IMG/VR virus record: IMGVR_UViG_3300032116_000060
Coordinates: 39,086 to 103,085 of that record
Origin: a virus
Taxonomy: Duplodnaviria > Heunggongvirae > Uroviricota > Caudoviricetes
Length of the DNA stretch: 64,000 bases
Direction: 5' to 3' (one strand)
Below, piece after piece: positions 23,275-48,778 of this stretch. How positions within the stretch are numbered: position 1 is the stretch's first letter; each line of letters begins with the position of its first letter. The notes under the pieces were generated by a model. The model did no database searches. It was given only the letters and a program-made list of their open reading frames with translations, and was not told the DNA's origin. A program made the translations under genes and the position numbers.

Positions 23275-23286
23275 TTAAAATTCACG

Positions 23287-23370: not shown

Positions 23371-23413
23371 ATTATTTAAATCAAATGTACGAAAACGATT
23401 GAAAGAAAACAAG

Positions 23414-23869: not shown

Positions 23870-23883
23870 ATTTTATTTGTTTG

Positions 23884-23957
<74 letters not shown>

Positions 23958-24038
23958 ATTGCGGTCTATAAGGGTTACGCTCCCTTTACTTCACAGTGAC
24001 AGTGTGATATGATAACTACTTCACTAATAGACCTTTTG

Positions 24039-24112
24039 AGCCTCCGGTCGGATTCGAACCAACGACAACCTGATTACAAATCAGGAGCTCTGGCCAACTG
24101 AGCTACGGAGGC
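24039..24112 (-). tRNA. tRNA-Thr(TGT)
   Basis: perfect acceptor GCCUCCG; anticodon loop UUUGUAA. Confidence 0.65.
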
Positions 24113-24120
24113 CTATTATG

Positions 24121-24192
24121 TACTCGGTACGGGATTCGAACCCGTGCTACATCCGTGAAAGGGATGTGACCTAACCCCTAGTCCAACCGAGC
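24121..24192 (-). tRNA. tRNA-Glu(TTC)
   Basis: anticodon stem CAUCC/GGAUG, loop CUUUCAC; 3-bp D stem. Confidence 0.6.
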
Positions 24193-24193
24193 A

Positions 24194-24616
24194 TTAAAAT
24201 GGTAAATTTATTGAATGGGATGCAAATGTATTATTAGATGCTTTTAATTTAGTTTGTTTAAGACCACTTAAAAAATTTAAATAACTATTTACCATACTAT
24301 TTTTAACTAATTCGCTTCCCATTTGTTTCATAAATTCATTTATATCTAAAAGGTCTTTTCTTCTAAATACTCTTTTTATATTCGGAGTGATTTGTTGTTG
24401 AGGTAAATTAACACTCATTAAAAATTCATCAAACTCACCTTCTTTAAGAAACACTTCTATAAAAGTTTCCCCAACCGAATCACTATCACACATAGTAAAG
24501 CAATAGGTAGTTTTACCCAATTCATCTTCGGTGGTATATGTTGTATCAATAGCCAAATCCATACCTGCTAATATAATAAACTTATACCTTAACTTATCCC
24601 AATTGATTATCTTCAT
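24194..24616 (-). CDS. hypothetical protein
   Basis: 140-aa ORF; class-A box 7 nt upstream (24620-24638). Confidence 0.5.
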   Translation of the reverse strand: MKIINWDKLRYKFIILAGMDLAIDTTYTTEDELGKTTYCFTMCDSDSVGETFIEVFLKEGEFDEFLMSVNLPQQQITPNIKRVFRRKDLLDINEFMKQMGSELVKNSMVNSYLNFLSGLKQTKLKASNNTFASHSINLPF

Positions 24617-24619
24617 CGT

Positions 24620-24638
24620 TTACAAATATACGAAAAAT
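24620..24638 (-). promoter_or_regulatory. class-A promoter box
   Basis: TTACAAATATACGAAAAAT. Confidence 0.4.
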
Positions 24639-24660
24639 ATCTGATATATCCAAAAAAAGT

Positions 24661-25116
24661 TTAACCCTTTACGATATGGTCAGCAGCGTATGTAGCAATT
24701 GGGCCTAATGTTTTATATCTAACCGCATACCCCATTCCTTCCACCATACCAACTGCTTGTCTGAACACTTCGTTTGATTTATATCGAGGATCAGGATTCA
24801 AATCAATATCAATCCATTTAACCTTCGGTAATCCTGCATTTTTAATACTTTCAGCAACTTCAATAGCATACCAAACTTCATTTAATAATCTGGTTGCCCT
24901 TACTCTTTCTCTTTGTGTATTCCATCTTCTATAAAGAACATGCGCACCTTTACCTCTATGATATAAGGCAACTACAATGGCATATATTGTCTTATCAACA
25001 TAGTTTTGTGAATCACATCCGATAAGTATATCTACATCATTATTCGTTTGAAGATAATCATTTAGATAATCAATCAAACTAACTTTTTCTCCATCGTATA
25101 GCCGTTTGTATTCCAT
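24661..25116 (-). CDS. hypothetical protein (possible RNase-H-like fold)
   Basis: 151-aa ORF; ILIGCDSQ motif. Confidence 0.5.
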   Translation of the reverse strand: MEYKRLYDGEKVSLIDYLNDYLQTNNDVDILIGCDSQNYVDKTIYAIVVALYHRGKGAHVLYRRWNTQRERVRATRLLNEVWYAIEVAESIKNAGLPKVKWIDIDLNPDPRYKSNEVFRQAVGMVEGMGYAVRYKTLGPIATYAADHIVKG

Positions 25117-25137
25117 ATTATTACTTTTTTAGTTTTG

Positions 25138-25212
25138 TGCCCATAGAAGGATTCGAACCTTCAATTGGATGGCTTCTAAGACCATTGCGTATGCCAATTC
25201 CGCCATACGGGC
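25138..25212 (-). tRNA. tRNA with Leu anticodon TAG but class-I (short variable arm) architecture
   Basis: acceptor GCCCGUA/UAUGGGC; anticodon stem AUGGU/GCCAU, loop CUUAGAA; variable region only 6 nt. Confidence 0.45.
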
Positions 25213-25220
25213 ATTTTGAG

Positions 25221-25306
25221 TAGAGAGTAAGAGGTTCGAACTCTTGCGACTTTTACATCCTACCTGTTTAGCAAACAGGCCCCTTCACCAACTTGGGTAA
25301 CTCTCT
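25221..25306 (-). tRNA. tRNA-Ser(GCT)
   Basis: 86 nt with a long variable arm; anticodon loop UUGCUAA; acceptor AGAGAGU. Confidence 0.6.
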
Positions 25307-25371
25307 ATTTTGGTAGTTTTTAATCTCAATTCGGGTAAGAGGAGATACCAGCTCCAGAACTCGGGGTTGGG

Positions 25372-25443
25372 GGTGAATAATGGGATTCGAACCCATACTA
25401 ACAGAACCACAATCTGTCGTGCTACCCTTACACAATAAACACC
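25372..25443 (-). tRNA. tRNA-His(GTG) with G-1
   Basis: anticodon loop UUGUGGU; extra 5' G opposite C73; two U-U mismatches in the acceptor stem. Confidence 0.5.
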
Positions 25444-25451
25444 ATATTAAG

Positions 25452-25521
25452 TTGCGTGTTTGAGGTTTGAACTCAATTGGTCATCCTTATGAGAGATAAC
25501 TCTTTTCCACTAAGCCACGCA
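25452..25521 (-). tRNA. second tRNA with CAT anticodon (atypical D arm, 7-bp anticodon helix)
   Basis: T arm UUGAG-UUCAAAC-CUCAA; anticodon loop CUCAUAA; weak D arm. Confidence 0.4.
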
Positions 25522-25526
25522 GTTTG

Positions 25527-25597
25527 AGGTGGATATTGGATTTGAACCAATGTGAATGGTTTTGCAGACCACCTCCTCGCCTCTCGGACAATCCACC
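25527..25597 (-). tRNA. tRNA-Cys(GCA)
   Basis: acceptor GGUGGAU; U73 discriminator; anticodon loop CUGCAAA. Confidence 0.6.
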
Positions 25598-25603
25598 CTA
25601 TTG

Positions 25604-25675
25604 TAGCCCCTAAAGGATTCGAACCCTTACTCCAACATCCGTAGTGTTGTGTGCTATCCGTTACACCAAAGAGCC
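25604..25675 (-). tRNA. tRNA-Arg(ACG)
   Basis: anticodon stem CAACA/UGUUG, loop CUACGGA; acceptor has three G-U wobbles. Confidence 0.5.
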
Positions 25676-25679
25676 ATCG

Positions 25680-25871
25680 TTATTTCCATTGAGTCTTTCG
25701 GCTGTGTTTCCAACTTCTACACTCTCTTACTCTTACAACCTTACCACTACCATGTCTTTTTGCTCTGAACGATGATGGATGACAATCATAATACCAACTT
25801 CCATTTCGTTTGTTACAAATCATACAATAGTTGTAGATTTGATTCATTTGTTTTACTCTTTCTTCTTTCAT
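25680..25871 (-). CDS. small Cys/His-rich zinc-ribbon-like protein
   Basis: 63-aa ORF (CMICNK...DCH). Confidence 0.3.
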   Translation of the reverse strand: MKEERVKQMNQIYNYCMICNKRNGSWYYDCHPSSFRAKRHGSGKVVRVRECRSWKHSRKTQWK

Positions 25872-26074
25872 TTTGCATTAGGTTTAACTAATGCTTGTCA
25901 AATAATTGTTTCATAGTTTTACATTTATATTATTCACCGCCGTAAATAACAACTTTATCAAATTTTAATCCACCCCAATACCTTATAATAACACATTTAT
26001 TGTTGTAGCAAAATTCTATACTTGGATAATTGTTTTTTAAATCAAAGTTTATTTTCATAGTTTTATTCATTTAG

Positions 26075-26146
26075 CACCCCCTAAAAGATTCGAACTTTTA
26101 TCAACGGTTTTGGAGACCGGTATGCTAGCCATTGCACCAAGGAGAT
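26075..26146 (-). tRNA. tRNA-Trp(CCA)
   Basis: anticodon loop CUCCAAA; G73; acceptor with two G-U pairs. Confidence 0.55.
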
Positions 26147-26237
26147 AGTTAATAAGGCGTTACGCATCCATCTGTAACTTTACTTTTTTTGAGTCCGGAT
26201 GTGGCCACACCAACTCTGGGAACGATTACCTTATTTG

Positions 26238-26311
26238 TTGGAATAGAAAGACTCGAACTTTCAACTTTCACCGTATCAGGATGACACTCTAACCAATTGA
26301 GTTATATTCCA
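26238..26311 (-). tRNA. tRNA-Ile(GAT)
   Basis: perfect acceptor UGGAAUA; D arm ACUC-AAUUGGUUA-GAGU; anticodon loop CUGAUAC. Confidence 0.6.
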
Positions 26312-26317
26312 ATTTTG

Positions 26318-26393
26318 TATAGATGGTTGGATTCGAACCAACGTGTTCCACTTCCCAAAAGTGGCGAGATAAACCTGCCTCCTCTACATCTAT
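26318..26393 (-). tRNA. tRNA-Pro(TGG)
   Basis: anticodon stem CCACU/AGUGG, loop UUUGGGA. Confidence 0.55.
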
Positions 26394-26443
26394 ATGGCCG
26401 GCTCCGATTTTTGTATAGAACGTTGCCGAAGTAAACTATTTTG

Positions 26444-26517
26444 TGAACCCGAATGGACTCGAACCATTGACTTTCTCATTAAAAGTGAGAAGCTCTAACC
26501 AACTGAGCTACGAGTTC
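26444..26517 (-). tRNA. tRNA-Lys(TTT)
   Basis: D arm GCUC-AGUUGGUUA-GAGC; anticodon loop CUUUUAA. Confidence 0.65.
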
Positions 26518-26523
26518 ATTGTG

Positions 26524-26596
26524 TGGAGCCTTGAGGAATCGAACCGCATCCTTCCGCTCTTCAGGCGGACGTACGCACCAGCTATACGAAAGCTCC
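26524..26596 (-). tRNA. tRNA-Phe(GAA)
   Basis: anticodon stem UCCGC/GCGGA, loop CUGAAGA. Confidence 0.6.
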
Positions 26597-26601
26597 AATT
26601 G

Positions 26602-26683
26602 TGCCTGCAGATGGACTCGAACCACCGAACTCCGAAGAGAGGAGATTTACAGTCTCCAGCAATTGCCACTATGCGATACAGGC
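26602..26683 (-). tRNA. tRNA-Tyr(GTA)
   Basis: 82 nt with a long variable hairpin UCUCUUCGGAGU; anticodon loop CUGUAAA. Confidence 0.6.
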
Positions 26684-26691
26684 ATAAATTG

Positions 26692-26765
26692 TAGAAGATA
26701 TAGGATTCGAACCTATGACCCTTTGGATGTAAACCAAATGCTCTAACCAACTGAGCTAATCTTCT
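26692..26765 (-). tRNA. tRNA-Val(TAC)
   Basis: perfect acceptor AGAAGAU; anticodon loop UUUACAU. Confidence 0.65.
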
Positions 26766-26796
26766 ATTTTCCCACAATGTCAAAGAACCTTTCTTG

Positions 26797-26868
26797 CGTT
26801 GATGGTAGGATTCGAACCTACGACCAATAGATTAACAGTCTACTGCGCTACCACTGCGCCACACCAAC
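26797..26868 (-). tRNA. tRNA-Asn(GTT)
   Basis: D arm GCGC-AGUGGUA-GCGC; anticodon loop CUGUUAA. Confidence 0.6.
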
Positions 26869-29657: not shown

Positions 29658-30758
29658 TTACTTTTGAATAAAATGTTTTTCCCGCCTTTTATCCAATTCC
29701 ACTATATCCCTTTTCCCATCTTTATTTACATCTACTAATTTAATCATACAAATCCAACCTTCGGTATATGAATACGGATTATCTATAAATTGAGATGTTA
29801 CATCGGTTGTTTGATTTAGTATTTGAACGCGGTAACCTTTGTAGAATGAAAAATTAATTGGGTCTCCGGTTCTAATTAGTATTAACTCTTCTTTCCCATC
29901 GTTATTTAAATCATAACACAATGCATCTATGATTACACCGAATCCAATTTTATCTTCATTTAAAGTAATAGAGTTTTCTTCGGTAAAGATTCCACTTTTG
30001 CTACCATACATAATCCTTGTCAATGCAATTTGTGATTTATCTTTTAATATAGCGTATTCATGTCCAAAGAAGATTACATCATTTATACCATCACTATTGA
30101 AATCATCAATCAATGCACCTACATAATGTGAATCTTTATATGAAGAAGGAATTACATTTGGAGTTTCTATTAACTCTCCTCCAACATTTTTAAAATAAGA
30201 TACTGAACCCGCTGTGCAAATAATTAAATCATTATCACCATCTCCATCTAAATCACCAGCAGTTCCTAAATGCCAGAAATCTTGCTTAGTATTTAGTTTT
30301 TTAGTTTCAAATTGATTATTCCCTCTATTGATAAAAACATAGGGAACTTCACCAGGATTAAATTGTAATCGCTCATCGTTGTGGGCCAATACAACGAAAT
30401 CTAAAAGATTATCACCATTAATATCGAAAGGTATAATTGAACGGGCAAAGATGAATGAAACATTTGGTATTTTGTATGATTCATATATGCCTTTTTTGTA
30501 TATCCTAATGAATACATCTCCATCAATATAAATTACATCATCCTCACCATCATTATTCAAATCCGCATAACCAATCAATCCCTTACCATTAAAATTATCC
30601 CATCTAGTCGATGTTAATCTAACTTCGTTTGATGTAAGAGTATCGTATCGGAATTCCTTTGGTTTAACTGAATTAATTAAAGGAGGTTGTATTGGTAAAA
30701 CATCACTTTTCTCACAACTAAATAAAAGTAGTGATAATGGTATTAGTAGCTTTTTCAT
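29658..30758 (-). CDS. FG-GAP / VCBS-repeat lipoprotein
   Basis: lipoprotein signal (LLLFSCEKS); at least six DxNxDGxxD calcium-binding FG-GAP-like repeats. Confidence 0.7.
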   Translation of the reverse strand: MKKLLIPLSLLLFSCEKSDVLPIQPPLINSVKPKEFRYDTLTSNEVRLTSTRWDNFNGKGLIGYADLNNDGEDDVIYIDGDVFIRIYKKGIYESYKIPNVSFIFARSIIPFDINGDNLLDFVVLAHNDERLQFNPGEVPYVFINRGNNQFETKKLNTKQDFWHLGTAGDLDGDGDNDLIICTAGSVSYFKNVGGELIETPNVIPSSYKDSHYVGALIDDFNSDGINDVIFFGHEYAILKDKSQIALTRIMYGSKSGIFTEENSITLNEDKIGFGVIIDALCYDLNNDGKEELILIRTGDPINFSFYKGYRVQILNQTTDVTSQFIDNPYSYTEGWICMIKLVDVNKDGKRDIVELDKRREKHFIQK

Positions 30759-36914: not shown

Positions 36915-36950
36915 TTACAAATATACGAAAAAAAAGTGTAAATTCCAAAT
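36915..36950 (-). promoter_or_regulatory. class-A promoter box
   Basis: TTACAAATATACGAAAAAAAA...AATTCCAAAT. Confidence 0.4.
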
Positions 36951-37086
36951 AAAAAACCCCTATATAATTAAGGGGTTGATTATTAAGTTTTCTTTTTAAA
37001 GATTCCTTTTCTTTGTTGTTCTCTACGGGTCTTTTTAGCAATCCTTTTACGATTTGCATTTACCTTTTGTCTTTTTGTTTGTGCCA

Positions 37087-37959
37087 TTATTTTAATTTTT
37101 CATATAAATACTCAGCATATTTTTTATTACCAAAATAACCTAAATGGGCATCATAAACTGGCGTTTCATCCAATATTCTCCACTTTTTCTTTTCTGCTAA
37201 ATTCCATATGGTAGGTAAATTAATTACATTTTCATTTGTGGAATCAAATAGTTTTAGTTTTTTAATTAGCTCAGCCGTATTGTTTCTATCCCCAAAATTA
37301 ATAGAACTTGCAAAAATAGTTTCATTTGGGTCTCTAATGTATGAGATTTTTAATTTATCTAAAAATGAATAAAACATTGTTAATTGTCTTAATAATCTTT
37401 TCGTCTCTACATCATAATCAATATAGAAATCAACAATCTTATTTAGTAATTCATCATTCTCTTTTAGTTCCTCAAATGTTATGGTTGAATGTAGGCTAGA
37501 AAAATCTCTACTGAATGATACTTTTGAAAACCAGGAATCATGCCAATCTCTACTAATTTCAATTTCATCATATTGATTTACATCACTACCTCCTTTGTAA
37601 GAAATGGAAACGGCAAAATAATCGCTATGTTTTCGGGAATAGACCTCAAATCTGGCAGGTTGTAATGGTATATCAAATATGAAAAGGATTTTAGATAGCT
37701 CTTCTAATGTTTTAGTGCTGATGAAATCATATGTTTTTCTTATCAATCTATCTAACCCACCACCCTCTTTTGCTTCGTTAATAACTTCTAAATTCATCAT
37801 CGAACCTAATATGTTTCCATAGGATAGTTCTTTTTGAGTAGCCCAATTTTCTATATCTAATTCAGTTGTATAATACCTCCACGCTGCCGATTGGTATCCC
37901 AATGCCCCTCCACAGCTTAGACTACTTCCATTAATATATAATTGAGTGTATTTATTCAT
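37087..37959 (-). CDS. SGNH-hydrolase-like protein with variant block I (GSS instead of GDS)
   Basis: N-terminal YINGSSLSCGG and C-terminal DAHLGYFG (DxxH block V-like). Confidence 0.4.
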   Translation of the reverse strand: MNKYTQLYINGSSLSCGGALGYQSAAWRYYTTELDIENWATQKELSYGNILGSMMNLEVINEAKEGGGLDRLIRKTYDFISTKTLEELSKILFIFDIPLQPARFEVYSRKHSDYFAVSISYKGGSDVNQYDEIEISRDWHDSWFSKVSFSRDFSSLHSTITFEELKENDELLNKIVDFYIDYDVETKRLLRQLTMFYSFLDKLKISYIRDPNETIFASSINFGDRNNTAELIKKLKLFDSTNENVINLPTIWNLAEKKKWRILDETPVYDAHLGYFGNKKYAEYLYEKLK

Positions 37960-38282
37960 TACAAAGAGAATGATTCACCACATCCACAGGTTCTACTTGC
38001 ATTTGGATTCTTAAATTCAAATCCTTTTCCATTTAATCCATCAGAAAAATCTAATTCAGTTCCAAACAAATACATAAACGATTTACCATCTACTAAAATT
38101 TTTACATCTTTATCCTCAAACTGCATATCCGATGGTTTAACATCATCATCAAACGAAAGGTCATATGATAATCCACTACATCCACCACCTTTTACAGCAA
38201 CTCTTAAATAAGGTGTCGTATTACCACTTTCTTCAATAAGTGATTTAACTTTTTTAGAAGCGTTTTCTGTAACCGTAATCAT
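37959..38282 (-). CDS. iscA: A-type iron-sulfur cluster carrier (IscA/ErpA family)
   Basis: 107 aa; conserved Cys triad (GGGCSG ... CGCGESF). Confidence 0.8.
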   Translation of the reverse strand: MITVTENASKKVKSLIEESGNTTPYLRVAVKGGGCSGLSYDLSFDDDVKPSDMQFEDKDVKILVDGKSFMYLFGTELDFSDGLNGKGFEFKNPNASRTCGCGESFSL

Positions 38283-38680
38283 TATTCAAAATTTAATTGT
38301 TCTAATCCTTGTTTAACTCTATAATCATTTATCGCAGATTTAATTGCATCCTCCGCCAAAACACTGCAATGGATTTTTACAGGTGGTAAGGCCAATTCTT
38401 CAACTAAATCCATATTATCAATTGTAAGTGCCTCATCAATTGATTTACCTTTTAACCATTCGGTGGCTAATGATGAAGCTGCAATCGCCGAACCACATCC
38501 AAAAGTTTTAAACTTAGCATCAGTTATTACACCATCATTTACTTCAATCTGCAATCTCATTACATCACCACATTCCGGTGCTCCAACCAATCCCGTTCCA
38601 ACATTTGATTTACTCTTATCTAACGTTCCTACATTCTTTGGGTTTTCATAGTGCCCAAGCACTTTTTGACTATACGCCAT
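38282..38680 (-). CDS. iscU: Fe-S cluster assembly scaffold IscU
   Basis: 132 aa; GAPECGD, GCGSAIASS, LPPVK, HCS motifs. Confidence 0.85.
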   Translation of the reverse strand: MAYSQKVLGHYENPKNVGTLDKSKSNVGTGLVGAPECGDVMRLQIEVNDGVITDAKFKTFGCGSAIAASSLATEWLKGKSIDEALTIDNMDLVEELALPPVKIHCSVLAEDAIKSAINDYRVKQGLEQLNFE

Positions 38681-39282
38681 TATTTATTATGTTCTTTTGT
38701 TTCGCAAAGTTTTTCCAATTGTTCCCACTTATATTTAGGCCTTTCATTCAAAAACACAAAACATCTCCATTTACCTGATTTTTCAAAATATATGTGTTTT
38801 TCTAAATAAGCTGGAATTGCAGCGTTTGTTGCGATTCTTCTAACAGGATTATCAAAGTGTAATGTTATTAACACCGTCAGATTTTCAACATCATCCCACT
38901 TTCTTTCTTGCTCCTCTAACAATCTCCACTCTCCTCTATTAAGATATTGATCCTGTAATATACAATTCAAATAAGAGAATGTTTGCTTTAAGTTCTCCAT
39001 ATTATCGGAGAACGATGCGGCTGGTGCTCCATGTCCCTTATCATAAATGTTCTTCACATAATCTTCCGCATCCGATGTTTTAACATTAGGTTCTTTATAG
39101 AAATCCATAGTTCCCCTATTCACATTTGTAGGTCGATTTATAGAACGATACCTAATCCATAATGGTTGTTCTAATGATTGAGAATAAAGTGTTTCAAACA
39201 CATTATTTTTAATCCTTACATCTTGTGAATAACCAACAGTTGTAAAGAAGGATAATAACGAAATTAATAGCAAATGTTTCAT
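38680..39282 (-). CDS. secreted DNA/RNA non-specific endonuclease (NUC, His-Me finger) -like
   Basis: signal peptide MKHLLLISLLSFFTTVGYSQ; DKGHGAPAA (DRGH-like catalytic motif). Confidence 0.55.
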   Translation of the reverse strand: MKHLLLISLLSFFTTVGYSQDVRIKNNVFETLYSQSLEQPLWIRYRSINRPTNVNRGTMDFYKEPNVKTSDAEDYVKNIYDKGHGAPAASFSDNMENLKQTFSYLNCILQDQYLNRGEWRLLEEQERKWDDVENLTVLITLHFDNPVRRIATNAAIPAYLEKHIYFEKSGKWRCFVFLNERPKYKWEQLEKLCETKEHNK

Positions 39283-39314
39283 AAAGTTTATTTACTATTA
39301 AATATATACTACTA

Positions 39315-39617
39315 TCATTTCCAAAACTGCCACCATTTCTTTTTTTCAACCGGTTTAGAAAATGGATGTGAGTTATCCCAAATATTTACAATCCCACCAT
39401 ATCTTACCGACATCATCTGCATAAATAGGTGGTGATAGTTTGGTGGTATCTTTTCAAAATCTGCTCTTATAACCACATCTAAATCCACACTTTTATTATC
39501 CGCAACCATAAGTTTTAAATGGTCACGCATTTCTACCACAGTCGAACTTTTTACGGTTAGATGTGCTCCATCTCCTAAATGGAATATACCGGGTATTGGT
39601 TTAGGTTTAGTAGCCAT
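39315..39617 (-). CDS. hypothetical protein
   Basis: 100-aa ORF. Confidence 0.5.
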   Translation of the reverse strand: MATKPKPIPGIFHLGDGAHLTVKSSTVVEMRDHLKLMVADNKSVDLDVVIRADFEKIPPNYHHLFMQMMSVRYGGIVNIWDNSHPFSKPVEKKKWWQFWK

Positions 39618-40094
39618 TTATTCTCCTTTCATTATTTTATACCTTCTTACTCTCTCTTCTTCGGTAAGGAATTCAGTATATGTATGTTCGATTTTTGCCT
39701 TTATACAAGTTTCTGGCAATCTTTGATTTCTCAAATAATTGTTTACATATCCTAATATATTGTGAGTTCCAATTGGATTAGCAGAATGAACATAAATTTG
39801 TGGTAATGGTATGCCTCTAGTAATGCTTTCCGCCACTAAAAATCGTGCACAATCCATACCTGTCTTTTCTTCAATCCTTTTGTAATCCAATTCGTAGTTT
39901 GGTTTTACATTAGTATAGTATTCCTGCATAGCACCTTCACCTAAATCATGATCTAGGGAAATAACTTCATAATTCTCTAAACCATTTAGACGAATATGAG
40001 CAACGAACTCATCATAATTCCTAACCACTTCCCAACTCAATTCAGTTGGTATCCTTACATCATCTAGATAAAGATATATTTTTTCTTTTTTCAT
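39618..40094 (-). CDS. hypothetical protein
   Basis: 158-aa ORF; first gene of a tightly overlapped six-gene operon. Confidence 0.5.
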   Translation of the reverse strand: MKKEKIYLYLDDVRIPTELSWEVVRNYDEFVAHIRLNGLENYEVISLDHDLGEGAMQEYYTNVKPNYELDYKRIEEKTGMDCARFLVAESITRGIPLPQIYVHSANPIGTHNILGYVNNYLRNQRLPETCIKAKIEHTYTEFLTEEERVRRYKIMKGE

Positions 40095-40558: not shown

Positions 40559-40599
40559 CAAATATACAAAATAATTATGAATTTTCCAAATTTATTTTT
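40559..40599 (-). promoter_or_regulatory. class-A-like promoter box
   Basis: CAAATATACAAAAT...GAATTTTCCAAAT. Confidence 0.35.
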
Positions 40600-41360
40600 T
40601 TTAAGATAGATTCCGCGAGTATTATATTTCCTTTTCTATTTAAATGATAATCATAGAAAATTTTATCTTTGTATTCAATTTTTATTGGATTGTTTAAAAC
40701 CAAATTAAAAAAGGATGTATTATCATTTATTTTAATAAATCTATTTTTTTCATCAAATTCAGAGAAATCTCCTAACCAATCCAAATAGTAGCATCTCCAA
40801 CCCAATTCAGTTTCTAAATTATCAATAATTGAATCTATGGATTTATAAATTGAGTATATTCTATCTTTTAATATTTCTCTTACAACAGAATCAGGCCGAT
40901 GTATTAGTAAATTATACCTACTGAATTCTTCATCAGTAATTATACCAAAATCCTCTCTCCCCAAAGATGTAAATTGGAAAATTAAAATAACATCTCTTTT
41001 TTCAGATTCTAATTTATAAAAGTTTTCTAAAAGCTGTCTATTCGATGTTATACTCCCACCATTATATTTTTTCTTATATACTTTTCTACCCAACGATTCA
41101 CCTACTTTATTGGTAAATGATAAATTATCTTTAATAATCATTTCTTCTTTTCCAATAAATTCTTGCTGATCAATCCACTGTAAGTGTGTTTCATTTTCTA
41201 TTGTATTAGCATAAAACTTTTCAAATAGTTCTGGTCTATTTTCTTTCCAATAGTCTAAATATAGGCCCTGTCCCCAAGTGAAACTATCTCCTATAAAGAC
41301 TATTTCTTTTGAGTTATCCGAAGTGTTTGATAATTGAAGTTGATAATATATGTTGTGCAT
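40575..41360 (-). CDS. SGNH/GDSL hydrolase
   Basis: block I FIGDSFTWGQGLY and block V DYHLN. Confidence 0.6.
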   Translation of the reverse strand: MHNIYYQLQLSNTSDNSKEIVFIGDSFTWGQGLYLDYWKENRPELFEKFYANTIENETHLQWIDQQEFIGKEEMIIKDNLSFTNKVGESLGRKVYKKKYNGGSITSNRQLLENFYKLESEKRDVILIFQFTSLGREDFGIITDEEFSRYNLLIHRPDSVVREILKDRIYSIYKSIDSIIDNLETELGWRCYYLDWLGDFSEFDEKNRFIKINDNTSFFNLVLNNPIKIEYKDKIFYDYHLNRKGNIILAESILKKINLENS

Positions 41361-41997
41361 CTTTATTTAAATGTAAATCAATAATTTTATGATTATTAAT
41401 ATCGATATCTATTTTATACTCATTTAATAATGGATTGAAACAATAATGATTTTTTTCATTATATAAATACTTAACAAATTTATGTGGTTGGAATTTGTAA
41501 AAATCACCCAACCAATCCATAAAACAGTATTGAAATTTATATAGCTCTGAATAGTATTTTAGTATCCCATCGATAAATTTATAAAAGTTAAATGCCCTTT
41601 GCTCAAACATATCATTAAACGATGGGTTTATTGAATCATCATCAACGATGTTTAAATCTCTAAATTGGTATCTACTTATAGTTGTAAATTGAAATACTAA
41701 TTTTTGTATAGAATTATTATAAGTATCTATTAAAGGGATAGTATCTAATAATATATCGGTATTACTACCGCCATTTTTATTTCTTTTTATTGGTTCTAAA
41801 TTATAGTAATCGGATACTAAACCTGTAAAGGATAATTTATCTTTATATACTAAATCCTGCTCTCTAATTAAATCGGAATGACTAGGATACATACCTCCTA
41901 TATTAGTTGGTAGTTCTCTACCCTCCTCTTTCCATTTGTAAAAATACAAACCCTGTCCCCAAGTAAAACTATCACCTAAAAAAAGTATTTTACCCAT
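41314..41997 (-). CDS. SGNH/GDSL hydrolase (paralog of 40575..41360)
   Basis: block I FLGDSFTWGQGLY and block V DLHLN. Confidence 0.6.
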   Translation of the reverse strand: MGKILFLGDSFTWGQGLYFYKWKEEGRELPTNIGGMYPSHSDLIREQDLVYKDKLSFTGLVSDYYNLEPIKRNKNGGSNTDILLDTIPLIDTYNNSIQKLVFQFTTISRYQFRDLNIVDDDSINPSFNDMFEQRAFNFYKFIDGILKYYSELYKFQYCFMDWLGDFYKFQPHKFVKYLYNEKNHYCFNPLLNEYKIDIDINNHKIIDLHLNKDAQHILSTSIIKHFG

Positions 41998-43216
41998 TTT
42001 CTATTTCGTTTATGAAATCTGATTTGAATTTATTTAAAATCGTAATCATATTATTATAATTATGGTCTAAAACATCATAGTTCTCCTTCACTATATTATG
42101 TAATTCTTTTATATCTCTATCACAAATAGTTTTATATTCGTCTAATATGTAATAAAGACGATTTGTATGGTCTGCCAATTCATCATAGCTCTCATCAAAA
42201 ATAAAATCAAAAGTTTTAAAACCTAACTTTTTTAATTCACTTAACATATTAGTATATGAGAATGTAAGAAATGGTTTTTTTTGAATAAATGGTTTTAAAG
42301 TTTTTTCCGATGTTTGTATAATTTGCCCTTCACATGATTCATACATAGTTTCAAAAACCATTTCAAAAAGAGAATCACTATATCTATTTAGATTGGTTAA
42401 TAACGAATACTCCATCGTTTTAAACTCTTCATCATCAAATGGTTTTGGCTTAAAGATATATGAATCATCGATTTCCACCAATCCACCCTTACCTCTATTG
42501 TAATCATATACAATTTGTGAGTAGTTAAATCCTTGCCCTAATTCATTATTTCTATAAGTTGAAAAGAATGCCAAATTATTTTTATCCCATAGATTATTAT
42601 CATCTACAAATTTATAGTAATGCATTCTATCGGTGTTTATACTATTAGCCGCAGAATAGAAATACTTTGTTTTTTCTTTATTATAGTTAGCATCAAAGTA
42701 ATCATTTTTCAATAACTCATTATCTAATTTTTCAATTGTCATAGCATTCTGAGCTGCAAAATAACCCACATCACTATCATATTTAAATTTAAAAACAGTT
42801 GAAAATAATTTATATGGTAATTTTAATTCTGAAAAATAACTATTAAATTTAACAAAATTTTCTTTATACTCCATTAAAGTATAATTTGTCCAATCAGTAT
42901 CCATTTCCCAAAATATTACCTTTTTTATTTTGGTTATATTATTTGAAACTAAATCAGTAAAATCTTTTCTATTTGGTAATGAAAATAATTGCCTAAATGA
43001 ATCATCAAAGCCTATAATTAAATAGAATTTATCTAACCCATTTATTTCTTTTTCATTTTCTATAATATTGTAATCAGATAAAAAAGAATAAAAATAATCT
43101 TTTCTTGCTTTAAAAAATTCTCTCTCTGGTTGATGGATGGAATCTAAATGAAAATCATCAAATTCTAAATTTTCATTATGATTAGGTGCATATTTGTAAA
43201 ATACCAAATTTTTCAT
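41990..43216 (-). CDS. large paralogous protein A of unknown function (possibly glycan-active)
   Basis: 408 aa; C-terminal half colinear with 46581..47774 (LGFKTFDFIFDESYD / FGFKTFDWLVDESYD; NYDVLDHN / NYDVLEHN). Confidence 0.6.
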   Translation of the reverse strand: MKNLVFYKYAPNHNENLEFDDFHLDSIHQPEREFFKARKDYFYSFLSDYNIIENEKEINGLDKFYLIIGFDDSFRQLFSLPNRKDFTDLVSNNITKIKKVIFWEMDTDWTNYTLMEYKENFVKFNSYFSELKLPYKLFSTVFKFKYDSDVGYFAAQNAMTIEKLDNELLKNDYFDANYNKEKTKYFYSAANSINTDRMHYYKFVDDNNLWDKNNLAFFSTYRNNELGQGFNYSQIVYDYNRGKGGLVEIDDSYIFKPKPFDDEEFKTMEYSLLTNLNRYSDSLFEMVFETMYESCEGQIIQTSEKTLKPFIQKKPFLTFSYTNMLSELKKLGFKTFDFIFDESYDELADHTNRLYYILDEYKTICDRDIKELHNIVKENYDVLDHNYNNMITILNKFKSDFINEIENG

Positions 43217-43217
43217 A

Positions 43218-44240
43218 TTACTTATTTGTGATAGAATTTTTAATGTAATTTACTATTTTTACCTGCATCTCTCCATAAATCTTACCATCGGTGCTTTCTT
43301 TTGTAGGCAATAAAACTTTTAAGAATTCTTCAAATTTTAATAAATTATCTTCTTCAAAATAATCCTTTTCTAAATTTATTAGTTTTGATAAAAATGGTTT
43401 TATAACACCTTTATAAAAGATTTTATTAGAAAAGTATGATGGATGATGGTCTAATGTCAGATGGACATATCTTAAAGATTCTTCCAAATGGTTTGCGGAA
43501 TAATCTAACATCCCCCCCATATTACCTTTACATTTTTTCGTAACTATGCTGTATTTTGATTGATTTTCAAAATATGCTAGATGATTAATAGGGTATTCAT
43601 ATTCATAAGTTTGAACATAATTTTTTATATCAGATTTTCCCCATAACCTTTCAAATTCTTTTGTTGAAACATCCCAACCAAAATGTATAAAATAATTTGA
43701 ATAATTTGTTTTTAATAAATCTACAATTTCTTCTATATTTTTTATATGTAAATTATAGTAATCTTCTAAATTATCAGTTTCAACAAAATAATCATTTCGG
43801 ACATTTCCTCCTATTATATTAAATTCAGTAATGCCATACTTTTGGGATTTGGTCAAAGAGGAGTATGGTGAGGTAAATATATTTTCATAACTTTGTGTAT
43901 TTCTTAATAAAGCACTTAATTGAACAATAGCTACCCCTTCCTTTGTATTGGAGTTTTTAATTCTATTTTTAAGAATCTCTTTTATAACATGATTTCCAAA
44001 ACTACCTCCCCCAAAATTATTTACTTTGTATCCACTTTGATTATTATAAGCCAAATCAAATTCTAAAAAATTACTTACCGGCTTTGTAGATTGAGTATGC
44101 ATTGAATATAGTAGTATATCCAACTCACCTAATTTGGGATTCATTTCCCACATTGGTGCTTCGGTGAAACTACAACCAAAAAAATCTATTTGTTTCATAT
44201 TGTGGTGACACCTCTTTTTTGAACAACTTTCGTTGCACAC
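43218..44240 (-). CDS. SGNH-like protein with GCSFT block I variant
   Basis: FFGCSFTEAP near the N-terminus; DHHPS near the C-terminus; paralog of 47759..48778. Confidence 0.5.
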   Translation of the reverse strand: MCNESCSKKRCHHNMKQIDFFGCSFTEAPMWEMNPKLGELDILLYSMHTQSTKPVSNFLEFDLAYNNQSGYKVNNFGGGSFGNHVIKEILKNRIKNSNTKEGVAIVQLSALLRNTQSYENIFTSPYSSLTKSQKYGITEFNIIGGNVRNDYFVETDNLEDYYNLHIKNIEEIVDLLKTNYSNYFIHFGWDVSTKEFERLWGKSDIKNYVQTYEYEYPINHLAYFENQSKYSIVTKKCKGNMGGMLDYSANHLEESLRYVHLTLDHHPSYFSNKIFYKGVIKPFLSKLINLEKDYFEEDNLLKFEEFLKVLLPTKESTDGKIYGEMQVKIVNYIKNSITNK

Positions 44241-44929
44241 TCATTAGCGAATTTAATTGATTCCTTTAAATCCTTTGTTTCCACATATTTGAATACTAAT
44301 GATGCCATAAATGTATCACCCGCACCACTTAAATCTCTTACCTCTATATCTCTATTTACCGGAAACACTTCATTTTGATAAAGGCAACCTCTCTCACTCA
44401 TTGTTATAATAAGTTTATCTGCCCAATCAACATACTTAGCTCCTTTCTTTTCACACAACTCCCATTCAAATTCATTCATTTTTATATAAGTGTAATCTGA
44501 AAAGGTTTGTAGGTTTATCGGCTTTTTTGTATCAATAAATGTAAGAGGATGCCTTCCACTTATTGAGTGTATATCACTTTCGGTTAAGAATCCTTTATCG
44601 TAATCTGATACCACCACAGCATCAACATCCCAATTTACTCTATTAATGTCAAATGCAGATTTCACCTTATCCAATGTATCCACTCTAATAAACATTTGGT
44701 TTGATTTAACATCTACATACCTAGTTTTAGTGATTTGCTCTTTGTTGGTAATTAACTCAACCTTTGCTCCTAATGATTCTAAATTTGCCCTAACGTTTCC
44801 GGCCATACCATCGTTTGTTACCGTTCTTGATGGCTCAAATACTGGTGCAGGTGCTTCTGGACATAAACGAGTTGCGTTTCCATAAATGAATATATCGGTG
44901 CAACTATCTCCTATAACTAAAATTCTCAT
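44195..44929 (-). CDS. PfkB-family sugar kinase, RfaE/HldE (heptose-7-phosphate kinase) -like
   Basis: RILVIGDSCTDIF...CPEAPAPV...GMAGNVRANLESLG and GAGDTF signature. Confidence 0.6.
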   Translation of the reverse strand: MRILVIGDSCTDIFIYGNATRLCPEAPAPVFEPSRTVTNDGMAGNVRANLESLGAKVELITNKEQITKTRYVDVKSNQMFIRVDTLDKVKSAFDINRVNWDVDAVVVSDYDKGFLTESDIHSISGRHPLTFIDTKKPINLQTFSDYTYIKMNEFEWELCEKKGAKYVDWADKLIITMSERGCLYQNEVFPVNRDIEVRDLSGAGDTFMASLVFKYVETKDLKESIKFANECATKVVQKRGVTTI

Positions 44930-44942
44930 AATGATATATATT

Positions 44943-45347
44943 TTACCAACTGATTTCCCAGTCTTTAAATTCTGATGCTAAACAATCAATCTTATAATCC
45001 TTTCTACCACCTACTACTTCTTGTATCCGATTCTTAGCGGTGTTTCGAATACCATTTAAGCCATGCGTTAGAGCTAACTTATTTGGCCCTTCCGAACCAT
45101 TTCTCACATTAGTTTCGTTTGTCCATATGTGTAGATTCATTTGTGATAAAACAACTATTGCTCTTATCGTTTCCCCTGTCAATTCCTCTTTACTTTCTTT
45201 CAAACATAGGTTTATATCATGCACAATGTCTGCAATTTCTTTTGCATATTCTTCCTTATGTTCGGTAATGAAAACTTCCTTTAACTGAATTATACTCAAT
45301 CTATCAATTAGTTCAGCCAATGTTGGTAAATACTTTCTTTGTTCCAT
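44943..45347 (-). CDS. hypothetical protein
   Basis: 134-aa ORF. Confidence 0.5.
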   Translation of the reverse strand: MEQRKYLPTLAELIDRLSIIQLKEVFITEHKEEYAKEIADIVHDINLCLKESKEELTGETIRAIVVLSQMNLHIWTNETNVRNGSEGPNKLALTHGLNGIRNTAKNRIQEVVGGRKDYKIDCLASEFKDWEISW

Positions 45348-45349
45348 AG

Positions 45350-46588
45350 TTATAAAAATTTATGTAAATGTTTTGGTATCGGTAGGTTATTGTAAAGTGA
45401 AGACCAATTTAAGTAATTTTTTAGATTTGTTAAGTGTTCTTCTTTATCACCCTCTATCCCTTGTTTAATATGTAATAAGTAATTTTTTATATCTCCCAAT
45501 AAATAAGGATTCTTTTCAACTCCTTTTATTTCAGTTCTACTAAAATACTCTTCTATTTCAGCTTCTAATCCAAAGTTTTTAGCATCTAAATGTTTCGGCC
45601 AACTTACTATTTGTAATCTAATGTTAGAATAATCTGCTATATACCCATTATCAATTAGGTAATCATAGGTTTCAAAAAATTGAAATACATTTAATAAAGT
45701 TGCGGTAAAGGTAAAATCATAGCTAATGTTAGGATTATTCTTTACCTCTTCGTTTAATTTTTTTAGATTAGATAAGAAGTTTTGTGTTTTAAAATTAGTT
45801 CTTTGAAATTCCCCCGTCTCAAACAATCCATCTAATGATATAGAATAAACTACATTTTTAAATCCTTTTGTGAATTCAAAAATAGAAGTATCTTTGTATT
45901 CTAATATAGAAAAGTTTGTTTGAAATTGTAGTGTCACATTTTTAGGATGTGGTATAATTTCTATGAAATCCCATACTTTTCTTGTGTACAATGGTTCTCC
46001 TCCTGCTAAATAAACATATTCCAAATGCTCTAATTCTTCTTTATTAAAATCATTTTTAAGAATGTGAAGTTTCTTTTTATTAAATGGAGCAATGTGTTCA
46101 TATACTCTGTGGTCTAATTTCCATTGTTTAAGTTTTTCTCTCACAGGATCTACAACTTCCTTTTCCCAATACTCAGCTCTTTCATCATACCAACTTGTAG
46201 AATCCCTCTCTCCACACATTCGGCATTTAAAATTACATTGATTAGAAAATCTTACATCTAAAAATACCAATTCGTTTTTATCAGATTCACCTTTTATAAG
46301 TTTATCATATTGTTTTTGAAAATGTGTATTCTTTTCTTGCCTAAAACTTCTCCCACCTCTTTCTTCGGTTTTCCAACAGGCATCACATATCTTATTCTTT
46401 ATTCCACTTTTTAAATCCTCTCTTAATTTTTCATAAGATTCGTTTTTATAAAATTGTTCAAAATCAACATAATCATTAAAGTTCTCTTCAAAGAAATCAC
46501 TTGCCATACAACACGGCTTTACCTTTCCATCCTGAAAAACGGAAAAGTGCATAAACGGCATCACACAAAATGTTTCTTTATTATACAT
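45350..46588 (-). CDS. radical SAM domain protein
   Basis: CNFKCRMCG (CX3CX2C) plus additional Cys clusters. Confidence 0.65.
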   Translation of the reverse strand: MYNKETFCVMPFMHFSVFQDGKVKPCCMASDFFEENFNDYVDFEQFYKNESYEKLREDLKSGIKNKICDACWKTEERGGRSFRQEKNTHFQKQYDKLIKGESDKNELVFLDVRFSNQCNFKCRMCGERDSTSWYDERAEYWEKEVVDPVREKLKQWKLDHRVYEHIAPFNKKKLHILKNDFNKEELEHLEYVYLAGGEPLYTRKVWDFIEIIPHPKNVTLQFQTNFSILEYKDTSIFEFTKGFKNVVYSISLDGLFETGEFQRTNFKTQNFLSNLKKLNEEVKNNPNISYDFTFTATLLNVFQFFETYDYLIDNGYIADYSNIRLQIVSWPKHLDAKNFGLEAEIEEYFSRTEIKGVEKNPYLLGDIKNYLLHIKQGIEGDKEEHLTNLKNYLNWSSLYNNLPIPKHLHKFL

Positions 46589-47774
46589 CGAATAATTTAT
46601 ATATTTTATCTATTTCTGATAAGGCAAATTCATTTACCATTTTATGATTATGCTCTAATACATCATAATTTTTTTCTATTTTAGATTTAAGTTCATCGAA
46701 TGGTGTATCTAATAATTTTTTAGTTTCCGCTAAAACCATTTCAAATCTTTTCTTATCATCCAATTCATTATCATAACTCTCATCTACCAACCAATCAAAT
46801 GTTTTAAACCCAAATTCTTTGAGTAATTTAATTACACCATATTGAGCAAAAACTATAAATGGAGACTTGTAACAAAAACCCTTAAAAATCTTTTCACTTA
46901 ATACAATGCCACAAGGAGAATGATAACGGGTTTCAAAAATTACTTGAAATAAAGATTCAACACTATCATTTAATGCTAAGTTTTTTACTTGATTGAAATC
47001 ATCATATTTTAATTTTTTGGGATGATACCCAATACTTAAATCCAATTCTCCCAAATGAGAAACAAAAGAGTTCGTATTTCCGGTATTTGCATGTAAAAAT
47101 TTTTCATTTACAAAATCTGAAATTTCAAACCTTTTTTTATTCCTATTATATAATGGAAGAAAAAACGATGTATTTACTTTATCCCAATAATTCCCCTTTT
47201 GTAAAAATTGATAAAAATGGAGTCTTTCTTCTTTTACATTACAATTTGCTGAAAATAAATGAAACTGCTTTTCTATCTCATAATTAAAATCTAAAGTTTC
47301 CGAATAGTTATGGAATAATTGAAATGGAAAACATCCAAATGTATATGTAGCATTTATTTTAGTGAAGTTAAATCTAGATTTGAAAATGTTTCTAACAAAT
47401 ACAAATCTTTCATCATCTCCAAAAATTTCGTAAAAAAAATCTTCTATTTCCAGTATTTTATGAAAAGTATCCCAATTTACTTCATTTTGATAAACTACAA
47501 CCTTTTTATAATTACCACTATCTAATTGCCTCTTAACATCTAAAAACCATTGCCTTTCAGAAATTAATGATTCGGCCATACCATTATATGTAAGAAACAA
47601 TATGGTATTATCTTCGGAATAATTAAATGTAAAGTTGTATATCTTTTCTAAAAATGGATACCAATAAATGTTGCCTAACACCCAATCTTTATCTTTAAAA
47701 TCGGTTGTCTTTACAAATTTACCATTTGCATTTTCATCAAAATCTATTGGATATATGTTTATAATATTTCCCAT
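46581..47774 (-). CDS. large paralogous protein B (paralog of 41990..43216)
   Basis: 397 aa; shared C-terminal blocks with protein A. Confidence 0.6.
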   Translation of the reverse strand: MGNIINIYPIDFDENANGKFVKTTDFKDKDWVLGNIYWYPFLEKIYNFTFNYSEDNTILFLTYNGMAESLISERQWFLDVKRQLDSGNYKKVVVYQNEVNWDTFHKILEIEDFFYEIFGDDERFVFVRNIFKSRFNFTKINATYTFGCFPFQLFHNYSETLDFNYEIEKQFHLFSANCNVKEERLHFYQFLQKGNYWDKVNTSFFLPLYNRNKKRFEISDFVNEKFLHANTGNTNSFVSHLGELDLSIGYHPKKLKYDDFNQVKNLALNDSVESLFQVIFETRYHSPCGIVLSEKIFKGFCYKSPFIVFAQYGVIKLLKEFGFKTFDWLVDESYDNELDDKKRFEMVLAETKKLLDTPFDELKSKIEKNYDVLEHNHKMVNEFALSEIDKIYKLFDV

Positions 47775-48778
47775 TTTACGATTTCAGATTTTACAAAATA
47801 ATCCCAATAAAAATAAGAGGGATGGCCATTTGGATTGAATGTATTGTTTTCTAATTTCTCAAATACTCTTTCTATTGGATACATAGGTTTTATTTGGGTA
47901 GGAGTTCCATCTATATCCTCAACCACTAATGGTGTATATTCACTATCACCATTTCTATAAATGTTTTTCAGATAAACCCATTCCGTTATTCCACCATATT
48001 TACAATTTTCATCATCTAAAAACCAAAAATTATCTAAATCCAATAATCCAAATAAATTCTTAATATATGGATCCGAATTTACAAACGATAATCTTTTTTT
48101 AGTGGCAAATTGTTTATTAATAAAAATAGATCTAAATTGTGAATCTATTGTTGTATCATCAATATAGAATAGAGGGGCAAATGGCAAACTAAATGATTCA
48201 GTTTTGCAAAATACTTTATATGGTATTTTGTTAGCCTTACAATAATTTTGTAGTAATAATATGTGTATAATTGAATCTATATAAGTTGATTCAATGCTAA
48301 ACAAATTTTCTCCGATACTTTTCGCTATCTCTACTAAATTTTTATTTGTTGAAAAATTTGGCGATACGTCACTTAATGTTCCGAATTGAAAAAATCCGTT
48401 TTCACTTCCATCAAATAAATAATTATTATTGCGAACTGAACTATTATCACTTGCAATGTTTTTAATAATCTGAAAAGAGGTTGGAAAATAATGTGATTTT
48501 CTTGTGAATTCGGTGCATTGTAAGATAATAGAAATTTTCTTACCTTCTTTTAGTAATCTATCTGCAATCGATAATATAGATAATACCGAAGTAGATATAT
48601 TATTACCAGCCATTCCCGCATTATATACTTTATTTCTATAATTACGATGAATTGCTTCCGGATACGAACCTAATGGAGATACACCATCTATATCAGGTGT
48701 CATCCCATTTAAAACCATATCCTCATTAAGAGTATTAAAATTAGTGAAGGAACACCCTGCACAAATTATCTCTCTCAT
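47759..48778 (-). CDS. SGNH-like protein with GCSFT block I variant (paralog of 43218..44240)
   Basis: ICAGCSFTNF near the N-terminus; GHPSYF near the C-terminus. Confidence 0.5.
   Translation of the reverse strand: MREIICAGCSFTNFNTLNEDMVLNGMTPDIDGVSPLGSYPEAIHRNYRNKVYNAGMAGNNISTSVLSILSIADRLLKEGKKISIILQCTEFTRKSHYFPTSFQIIKNIASDNSSVRNNNYLFDGSENGFFQFGTLSDVSPNFSTNKNLVEIAKSIGENLFSIESTYIDSIIHILLLQNYCKANKIPYKVFCKTESFSLPFAPLFYIDDTTIDSQFRSIFINKQFATKKRLSFVNSDPYIKNLFGLLDLDNFWFLDDENCKYGGITEWVYLKNIYRNGDSEYTPLVVEDIDGTPTQIKPMYPIERVFEKLENNTFNPNGHPSYFYWDYFVKSEIVKWEIL

Follow-up and report, generated by a model that had tools for sequence, protein, structure and literature searches.

An IscU and A-type carrier gene pair of Bacteroidota type, kept across a clade of large phages among variable neighbouring genes

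We report on a locus for iron-sulfur (Fe-S) cluster assembly at positions 37,087 to 40,094 of a 64,000-nt stretch of viral DNA (IMG/VR virus record IMGVR_UViG_3300032116_000060, positions 39,086 to 103,085), hereafter the window, which is part of a genome probably larger than 200 kb. An earlier note, made from the letters alone, had described six genes at this place as one overlapping operon in which IscU and IscA are joined to a secreted nuclease. All six open reading frames (ORFs) are present on the minus strand at the positions given below, where they are listed from upstream to downstream with one further small ORF and the putative flanking signals; the conserved unit within this arrangement is the pair of IscU and the carrier that follows it, and not the six-gene set.

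40560..40572, minus strand: promoter-like motif, TTTTCGTATATTT with one mismatch, where the transcription unit putatively starts
39618..40094, minus strand: cREC_REC domain protein of 158 aa (PF20274, phrog_1479), accessory
39315..39617, minus strand: orphan protein g39315 of 100 aa, without Cys, often found upstream of IscU
38680..39282, minus strand: Serratia-type non-specific nuclease (Endonuclease_NS) of 200 aa, predicted to be exported, accessory
38282..38680, minus strand: iscU, Fe-S cluster assembly scaffold of 132 aa (NifU_N, TIGR01999, phrog_8429)
37959..38282, minus strand: ErpA-like A-type Fe-S carrier (ATC) of 107 aa (Fe-S_biosyn, ErpA equivalog)
37087..37959, minus strand: SGNH/GDSL-fold protein of 290 aa, probable carbohydrate esterase or acyltransferase, accessory
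36983..37087, minus strand: very basic mini-ORF of 34 aa (MAQTKRQKVNANRKRIAKKTRREQQRKGIFKKKT), putatively coding, in TAATG overlap with the SGNH stop codon
36957..36974, minus strand: terminator-like hairpin with a T-run, putative end of the transcription unit

Judged by its sequence, the product of 38282-38680 is a bona fide IscU. It matches Pfam NifU_N (PF01592) at 2e-49 and, over residues 3-124 of 132, scores 213.3 bits on NCBIfam TIGR01999 against a curated cut-off of 192.4; column-for-column alignment with the Haemophilus influenzae IscU (1q48) places the cluster ligands in APECGDVM (Cys37, Asp39), GCGSAIA (Cys63) and LPPVKIHCS (His105, Cys106). With the equivalog cut-off exceeded and every ligand in place, the identity proposed earlier is borne out. 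The LPPVK chaperone-binding motif and the ligands are kept in both the phage and the host IscU consensus, and the sole systematic difference between the two is a 2-aa loop deletion in the phage proteins.

The protein encoded next, at 37959-38282, matches Fe-S_biosyn (PF01521) at 5e-21 and reaches 125.6 bits on TIGR00049 (cut-off 58.8). The name IscA that had been given to it is right as to the A-type carrier family, with the ligands intact, but the protein misses the cut-offs of the IscA equivalogs (TIGR02011 / NF007049; 106.1 bits vs. 150.6 and 181) and passes, narrowly, that of the ErpA equivalog NF010147 (126.7 bits vs. 117); on these scores, ErpA-like ATC is the safer and more accurate name. 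On the same ErpA model the copy in L009, the closest syntenic relative of the window locus, scores 118.5 bits, the copy in the megaphage LR756504 scores 114.7 and the host neighbour 98.5. HI1723 and E. coli IscA have cysteines aligned with those of GGGCSG and CGCGES, all three invariant Cys being kept, and the only systematic difference between the phage and host ATC consensus is one substitution at the last residue. Loss of Cys ligands in IscU or the carrier, which the earlier note had named as the finding that would speak against its reading, is seen in neither alignment.

We found IscU proteins 84-94% identical to the window copy on more than 590 IMG/VR viral contigs, several of which are 209-335 kb long; relatives of at least 200 kb include IMGVR_UViG_3300043395_001986, 3300021962_000021 and 3300027963_000034. 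All of the nearest cellular IscUs (81-87% identity) belong to Bacteroidota; most come from Chitinophagaceae (Sediminibacterium, Ferruginibacter) and Sphingobacteriales (Pedobacter), and some from Cytophagales. In 79 of 80 Bacteroidota host genomes the carrier lies directly after IscU, which is also the phage order; in Ferruginibacter paludis, for instance, the operon reads IscS-IscU-ATC and is followed by unrelated genes. By protein similarity and gene order, these data show capture of iscU and the carrier from a Bacteroidota iscS-iscU-iscA operon. In neighbour-joining (NJ) trees the 81 phage IscUs group in a single pure clade, and the bacterial ATCs, 79 in number, in a clade of their own apart from the phage proteins; the single IscU clade is, as a rough test, what would be expected of one old capture followed by vertical descent. 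An IscS-like protein was found neither in the window nor in 980 kb of related loci, and the window proteins scanned gave no HscA- or HscB-like match, so that what is seen of this genome falls short of a complete ISC system (IscS-IscU-IscA-HscB-HscA-Fdx).

Two viruses carry one member of the pair without the other beside it. Phage C48C1 (OQ984149.1, 40804-41175; our locus L001), a 156-kb T4-like member of the Kyanoviridae, has an IscU 70% identical to the window copy between its DnaB helicase and endolysin regions, with no A-type carrier adjoining it; the 636-kb megaphage LR756504.1 (388370-398693, our locus L002) has an ErpA-like carrier of 57% identity at 5001-5327 of that locus, with no IscU adjoining it. 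Some other GenBank records labelled as phage that matched IscU or ATC (Acinetobacter phage MD-2021a contigs and contigs from induced lysates of Listeria, Staphylococcus and Salmonella) were set aside; they hold full isc genes of host-like identity and look like bacterial chromosomal DNA.

Conservation was counted in 80 related viral loci, each taken with 8 kb on either side (980 kb in total). The carrier follows IscU in 74 of the 80, mostly directly and sometimes with an insertion between the two. In 27 loci the inserted gene encodes a 102-aa protein with two CxxCxxC...CP motifs (e.g. L069, 8468-8776), which by Pfam is a 4Fe-4S dicluster (2x[4Fe-4S]) ferredoxin; a homolog of it was sought in the window and not found. 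The other neighbours recur far less regularly: about 40 loci have g39315 just before IscU, the 290-aa family occurs in 22 at variable positions, the nuclease (recounted with a profile hidden Markov model) in three, cREC in two and the radical SAM protein in one. The claim that the six genes act as one functional operon is not borne out, as across the 80 loci only the step from IscU to the carrier is kept.

The dN/dS ratio against L009 is 0.09-0.30 for every gene, at a dS that is saturated in this comparison, and near-identical strains were therefore used instead. Seven such strains show no difference in IscU, ATC, g39315, the 290-aa gene or the mini-ORF, while the nuclease has a dN/dS of about 0.09. 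These substitution patterns show purifying selection on the pair, and by the same measure all genes of the locus are maintained, none having the look of a decaying passenger.

As for the architecture, the junctions from nuclease to IscU, from IscU to carrier and from carrier to SGNH gene each read TAATG, with a 1-nt overlap. The earlier description as a six-gene overlapping operon holds from the nuclease to the SGNH gene but fails upstream, where cREC and g39315 meet with a 0-nt gap and g39315 and the nuclease are 32 nt apart; the overlapping run comprises four genes, or five with the mini-ORF at 36983-37087, which is called in four of six independent gene calls and is identical across the seven strains. 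Tight packing is habitual in this genome, with 5 nt or less at 56 of 116 junctions in the window (counted on a simple ORF set; a longest-start convention raises the figure somewhat), yet TAATG junctions number only seven in the whole window, so that three or four in succession are distinctive. Such a run fits translational coupling within the overlapping block.

Signals that may bound a transcription unit were sought on both sides. The motif TTTTCGTATATTT(G/A), which contains the Bacteroidota -7 element TAnnTTTG, has seven exact copies in the window, always on the coding strand (11189, 12547, 14634, 24624, 36613, 36919 and 51368, minus strand), and the copy at 36919-36931 comes just after the terminator-like hairpin at 36957-36974. 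Across the 80 related loci, TTTTCGTATATTT occurs 88 times on the coding strand and 17 times on the opposite one; the shorter TANNTTTG alone is not enriched, strand specificity appearing only with the longer motif, and a scan for sigma-70 promoters was uninformative (87 sites vs. 95 expected). The motif lies within 100 nt upstream of IscU in 12 related loci and between IscU and ATC in one; standing before IscU and scarcely ever between the two genes, it points to the pair as the conserved co-transcribed unit, preceded by variable genes. In the window, the promoter-like motif and the terminator lead us to infer a transcription unit that would run for some 3.6 kb, between ~40572 and ~36957, and hold two small ORFs, cREC, g39315, the nuclease, IscU, ATC, the 290-aa gene and the mini-ORF.

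The nuclease call made earlier is sound. The protein matches Endonuclease_NS (PF01223) at 1e-18 (68.2 bits vs. a gathering cut-off of 23), and against the Serratia nuclease 1g8t the catalytic His (in DKGH) and the metal-binding Asn and Glu are aligned, with Lys in place of the Arg of DRGH; by inspection, its N-terminus MKHLLLISLLSFFTTVGYSQ resembles a signal peptide, with charge, a hydrophobic core and a small-residue end. A like N-terminus is found in five other phage nucleases, those of L009, L068, L076, the megaphage LR756504 and the cultured Flavobacterium phage immuto. The positions of these genes differ: the L009 copy (28-30% identical) follows IscU instead of preceding it and is in turn followed by the ATC; those of L068 and L076 lie 2.4 kb upstream; in LR756504 (L002, 6883-7563) it is 1.6 kb downstream of an ATC, with a signal peptide that ends in '...GYSQ' as in the window nuclease; and in immuto the gene (gp12, 47% identical to the window nuclease) stands beside ribonucleotide reductase and replication genes, with no IscU or ATC match found in that phage. 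By our estimate, one such gene placed at random in a genome of some 240 kb would give about this rate, three occurrences in 80 loci within 8 kb on either side. These contexts lead us to regard the nuclease as an accessory gene that has recurred, with independent placement, in Bacteroidota phages, and its position beside the Fe-S genes, which had been called odd and unexplained, needs no Fe-S explanation, since homologs stand in other contexts such as that in immuto. If exported, as predicted, it could not be a degrader of the host chromosome; it would more likely digest DNA that is extracellular or has been released, or attack the DNA of competitors on its way through the periplasm.

The 290-aa product of 37087-37959 belongs to an orphan family with 57 metagenomic homologs, in which N10-G11-S12-S13, G48-N49, G66/G68, D270 and H272 are invariant. 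Its AlphaFold model (pLDDT 85, pTM 0.84) has the alpha/beta/alpha fold of the SGNH enzymes, which supports at the level of the fold the proposal of a GSS-variant SGNH-like protein, with motifs that are non-canonical: block I reads N-G-S-S where the superfamily has G-D-S, the D-x-H spacing replaces the canonical D-x-x-H, and there is a large insertion at residues ~100-200. No Pfam SGNH model detects the protein, which matched no sequence family at all, and BLAST against the 'GDS'-type neighbours gave no link (E = 0.03), so that a fold search was needed. The SGNH/GDSL superfamily takes in carbohydrate esterases, peptidoglycan O-acetyl enzymes and phage tail-fibre esterases; on the evidence of the model, the protein would fit better in function with the carbohydrate-type cluster upstream (40575-48778) than with Fe-S assembly.

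For g39315, no match was obtained in Pfam, PHROGs, NCBIfam or PADLOC. A profile search recovered 87 clusters, all of orphans of about 100 aa, Pfam gave nothing on the longer family members, and the AF2 model (pLDDT 56) is too poor for a fold search. We considered a frataxin- or IscX-like accessory, which is unsupported, the protein being devoid of Cys and its predicted order of secondary-structure elements presumably different from that of frataxin; a nuclease inhibitor is likewise unsupported, with g39315 in 40 loci vs. 3 for the nuclease. The protein at 39618-40094, previously left as unknown, belongs to the cREC_REC family (PF20274 at 3e-20, 73.1 bits vs. a cut-off of 27; phrog_1479 at 2e-24). 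PADLOC found no defence-system match among the non-Fe-S genes of the locus.

A possible recipient of clusters is encoded further upstream:

45350..46588, minus strand: N-terminal-twitch radical SAM protein (NF033640, CNFKCRMC), within a cluster of glycan-like genes ~6.7 kb upstream

The protein scores 264.6 bits on NF033640 (N_Twi_rSAM; cut-off 170), has CNFKCRMC as its CxxxCxxC motif and is the sole clear Fe-S protein found in the window. It needs at least one Fe-S cluster and probably two, the second being suggested by the twitch domain. A single-sequence scan of IMG/VR returned nothing; an alignment-based scan, which has limited sensitivity as it used a two-sequence alignment and only two N-terminal patterns, found N-twitch radical SAM proteins at four loci (the L009 contig, one of 63% identity and two of ~32%). 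None of the IscU-bearing contigs of at least 200 kb is among these four, and outside the window the radical SAM gene is linked to IscU only in L009. The earlier note had taken this protein as the obvious client of the assembly genes. It is a genuine Fe-S protein in the same genome and, from its sequence, a plausible local client; with four viral loci against more than 590 IscU contigs, however, it cannot be the reason for which the clade keeps IscU and ATC.

The cluster in which it lies (40575-48778, minus strand) is low in GC (24-31%) and made up of orphan genes with a carbohydrate flavour, and may represent a glycan- or DNA-modification pathway. It holds two 'GDSFTWGQG' paralogs (40575-41360 and 41314-41997, E = 2e-26), two paralogs of ~400 aa (41990-43216 and 46581-47774, E = 4e-32) and a pfkB kinase resembling HldE domain I (44195-44929).

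In the window as a whole, every substantial ORF is on one strand, PHROG families match most genes, and 23 tRNA genes stand in a single array (16924-26868, minus strand) with small ORFs interspersed. Besides a dUTPase, the following are encoded:

8352-9422: IMPDH/GMP reductase, host-like gene
10278-11183: UV endonuclease UvdE, host-like gene
12611-14245: GroEL (phrog_5725), host-like gene
16203-16757: dTDP-4-dehydrorhamnose 3,5-epimerase, host-like gene
18414-19553: RNA ligase
29658-30758: FG-GAP repeat protein with a lipoprotein-like N-terminus, host-like gene

The RNA ligase and the cREC_REC protein at 39618-40094 together suggest a capacity for tRNA repair, and phage GroEL homologs are frequent in Flavobacterium, Cellulophaga and Bacteroides phages. 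The tRNA array, the single coding strand, the PHROG families and the occurrence of the same IscU on more than 590 IMG/VR contigs support a phage origin of the window, within which no capsid, terminase or other structural phage gene was found. When the 5-kb region was compared by megablast with GenBank phages, no match was obtained, and there is therefore no close cultured relative. The phage has been sampled repeatedly: the exact window IscU protein is recorded in 164 blocks of the public assembly collection, and the same locus is present in six independent assemblies at 98.8-100% nucleotide identity with an identical gene layout.

Taken together, we propose that IscU and the carrier form a two-gene auxiliary module that was captured once from the host by an ancestor of a clade of large freshwater Bacteroidota phages, has been kept since and supplies Fe-S clusters during infection, the neighbouring genes being accessory; we would put the probability of this reading at roughly three in four. 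The host-derived scaffold and carrier would be expressed during infection. As no desulfurase was found in the phage, sulfur for its IscU would come from the host cysteine desulfurase IscS; the phage IscU would then build [2Fe-2S]/[4Fe-4S] clusters and the carrier hand them to apo-proteins, such that Fe-S supply might be sustained once host expression falls or demand rises. Recipients could be phage clients (the radical SAM protein here, the 2x[4Fe-4S] ferredoxin in many relatives) and/or host Fe-S enzymes that the phage needs. The genes around the pair, from cREC and the 100-aa orphan through the nuclease to the SGNH enzyme and mini-ORF, would probably be co-transcribed with it as interchangeable accessory genes, with roles of their own outside any Fe-S pathway. 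Several points weigh against this proposal: 1) neither candidate client is clade-wide, the radical SAM protein being rare and the ferredoxin lacking from the window; 2) the window shows 64 kb of the genome, the rest of which may encode a phage desulfurase or further clients; 3) the assignment of the host, made from IscU similarity, the promoter motif and the style of the signal peptide, is a presumptive one; and 4) the IscU tree, built by NJ with a midpoint root, is a rough test of a single capture.

A bolder reading would take IscU-(ferredoxin)-ATC as a virus-run Fe-S maturation line for a conserved viral Fe-S enzyme essential for replication, with the ferredoxin as reductant, and would in addition treat the repeated proximity of an exported nuclease to the Fe-S carrier, in the window, L009 and LR756504, as a real functional link. 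We regard this reading, the nuclease link included, as unlikely.

We also considered whether the phage IscU and ATC might be decoys that sequester host IscS or clusters and thereby starve Fe-S-dependent defences or regulators (radical-SAM antiviral enzymes, Fe-S nucleases, IscR-type sensing). A scaffold and carrier that come without a desulfurase must engage host IscS, and neither the radical SAM protein nor the ferredoxin is a client across the clade, both of which would suit such a role. However, the ligands, LPPVK and the N-terminal region are kept, and the phage consensus, almost identical to that of the host, lacks a dominant-negative pattern; so close a match speaks for proteins functionally equivalent to those of the host, not for decoys. 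The phage moreover encodes an Fe-S protein of its own here, as its relatives do with the ferredoxin, and no neighbour matches a defence or anti-defence family. We surmise that a decoy function is quite improbable.

Also to be weighed is the original notion of six genes as one dedicated system. Here the nuclease, the SGNH protein and the then unknown proteins would assist IscU and IscA, perhaps scavenging or remodelling something on which the maturation of Fe-S enzymes depends, and the radical SAM protein would be the intended client. The consecutive TAATG overlaps do tie the nuclease, IscU, the carrier and the SGNH gene to one another, the arrangement recurs in all six assemblies of this phage, non-specific nucleases with a signal-peptide-like N-terminus lie by IscU and ATC in L009 and 1.6 kb from ATC in LR756504, and L009 again has the radical SAM gene together with IscU. 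On the other hand, the three nucleases among the 80 loci occupy three different positions at 27-30% identity, a rate of ~4% that by our estimate equals the expectation for random placement, and the immuto nuclease keeps company with replication genes where no IscU or ATC match was found. cREC (2/80) and the SGNH family (22/80, in variable places and with a fold that matches the carbohydrate-type genes upstream) do not travel with the pair, the radical SAM protein was found at only four viral loci, and overlapping junctions are common throughout the genome. Synteny has already largely refuted such a system, and we consider it very improbable.

That the window is a Bacteroidota chromosomal or prophage-remnant segment with the cell's own isc genes can scarcely be entertained: the 81-87% identity of IscU to Bacteroidota proteins, the shared order with the carrier and the lack of structural phage genes in the 64 kb would agree with it, but the 23-tRNA array and single coding strand, an IscU with no IscS beside it, unlike in host operons, the phage-type RNA ligase, cREC and GroEL as in Flavobacterium, Cellulophaga and Bacteroides phages, a locus common to more than 590 IMG/VR viral contigs of up to 335 kb, and phage IscUs in a clade apart from the bacterial ones all speak against it.

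Viral iscU, erpA and sufA genes, and the idea that they supply radical SAM proteins, are already published. Nishimura et al. 2017 (PMC5332604) described marine viruses whose complete genomes encode IscU and/or ATC, many of them together with radical SAM genes (as many as 12 in a single genome), suggested that the viral assembly proteins serve these radical SAM proteins, and cited earlier virome reports of sufA and iscU. Du et al. 2022 (PMC9038755) reported iscU and erpA in HMO-2011-type phages, nine Fe-S auxiliary metabolic genes of the Pacific Ocean Virome are listed in a review (PMC6359870), a viral orthologous group is recognised for ErpA (VOG07561), and transcripts of the HesB/IscA/SufA family are among the most numerous in a Lake Baikal viral fraction. 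PHROGs families likewise exist for both proteins (PHROG 8429 and 17776). The locus is thus a real but ordinary further case of a known class of viral auxiliary genes, and its interpretation as an operon was an over-reading; where a phage genome is compact, overlapping genes need not act together.

Compared with the ISC operon of Ferruginibacter paludis, the phage has the same IscU score (213 bits on TIGR01999), the same IscU-ATC order, and the ligands and LPPVK, but is without iscS, has its genes compacted to a 1-nt overlap and shows the 2-aa loop deletion in IscU; its ATC lacks the ~40-aa N-terminal extension of the host ATC and lies just over the ErpA cut-off, where the host ATC is generic. 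With the Serratia marcescens-type nucleases, including phage copies such as immuto gp12 and PHROG 14168, the window nuclease shares the His/Asn/Glu residues of the beta-beta-alpha-metal site, and differs in being short (200 aa), in the Lys for Arg in DRGH and in its Fe-S gene neighbours. The published viral Fe-S genes resemble those of the window in consisting of IscU and/or ATC with no desulfurase, in being host-derived and sometimes accompanied by radical SAM genes, and in their proposed role, the supply of clusters during infection. They differ in being marine, with IscUs that group with gammaproteobacterial (e.g. SAR86) homologs, whereas the window points to freshwater-type Bacteroidota (Chitinophagaceae/Sphingobacteriales); and the window clade, in contrast to them, comprises large phages, often over 200 kb, that keep IscU and ATC adjacent, often with a ferredoxin between. 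What is specific here is accordingly the Bacteroidota origin, the abundant clade of large phages and the fixed IscU-ATC adjacency with its optional ferredoxin. With more than 590 contigs that carry the pair, and with a desulfurase not found, this clade offers a convenient natural system in which to ask which step of Fe-S supply limits phage production, and adds a well-sampled freshwater Bacteroidota-phage example to a class so far mainly marine and with genes of proteobacterial type.

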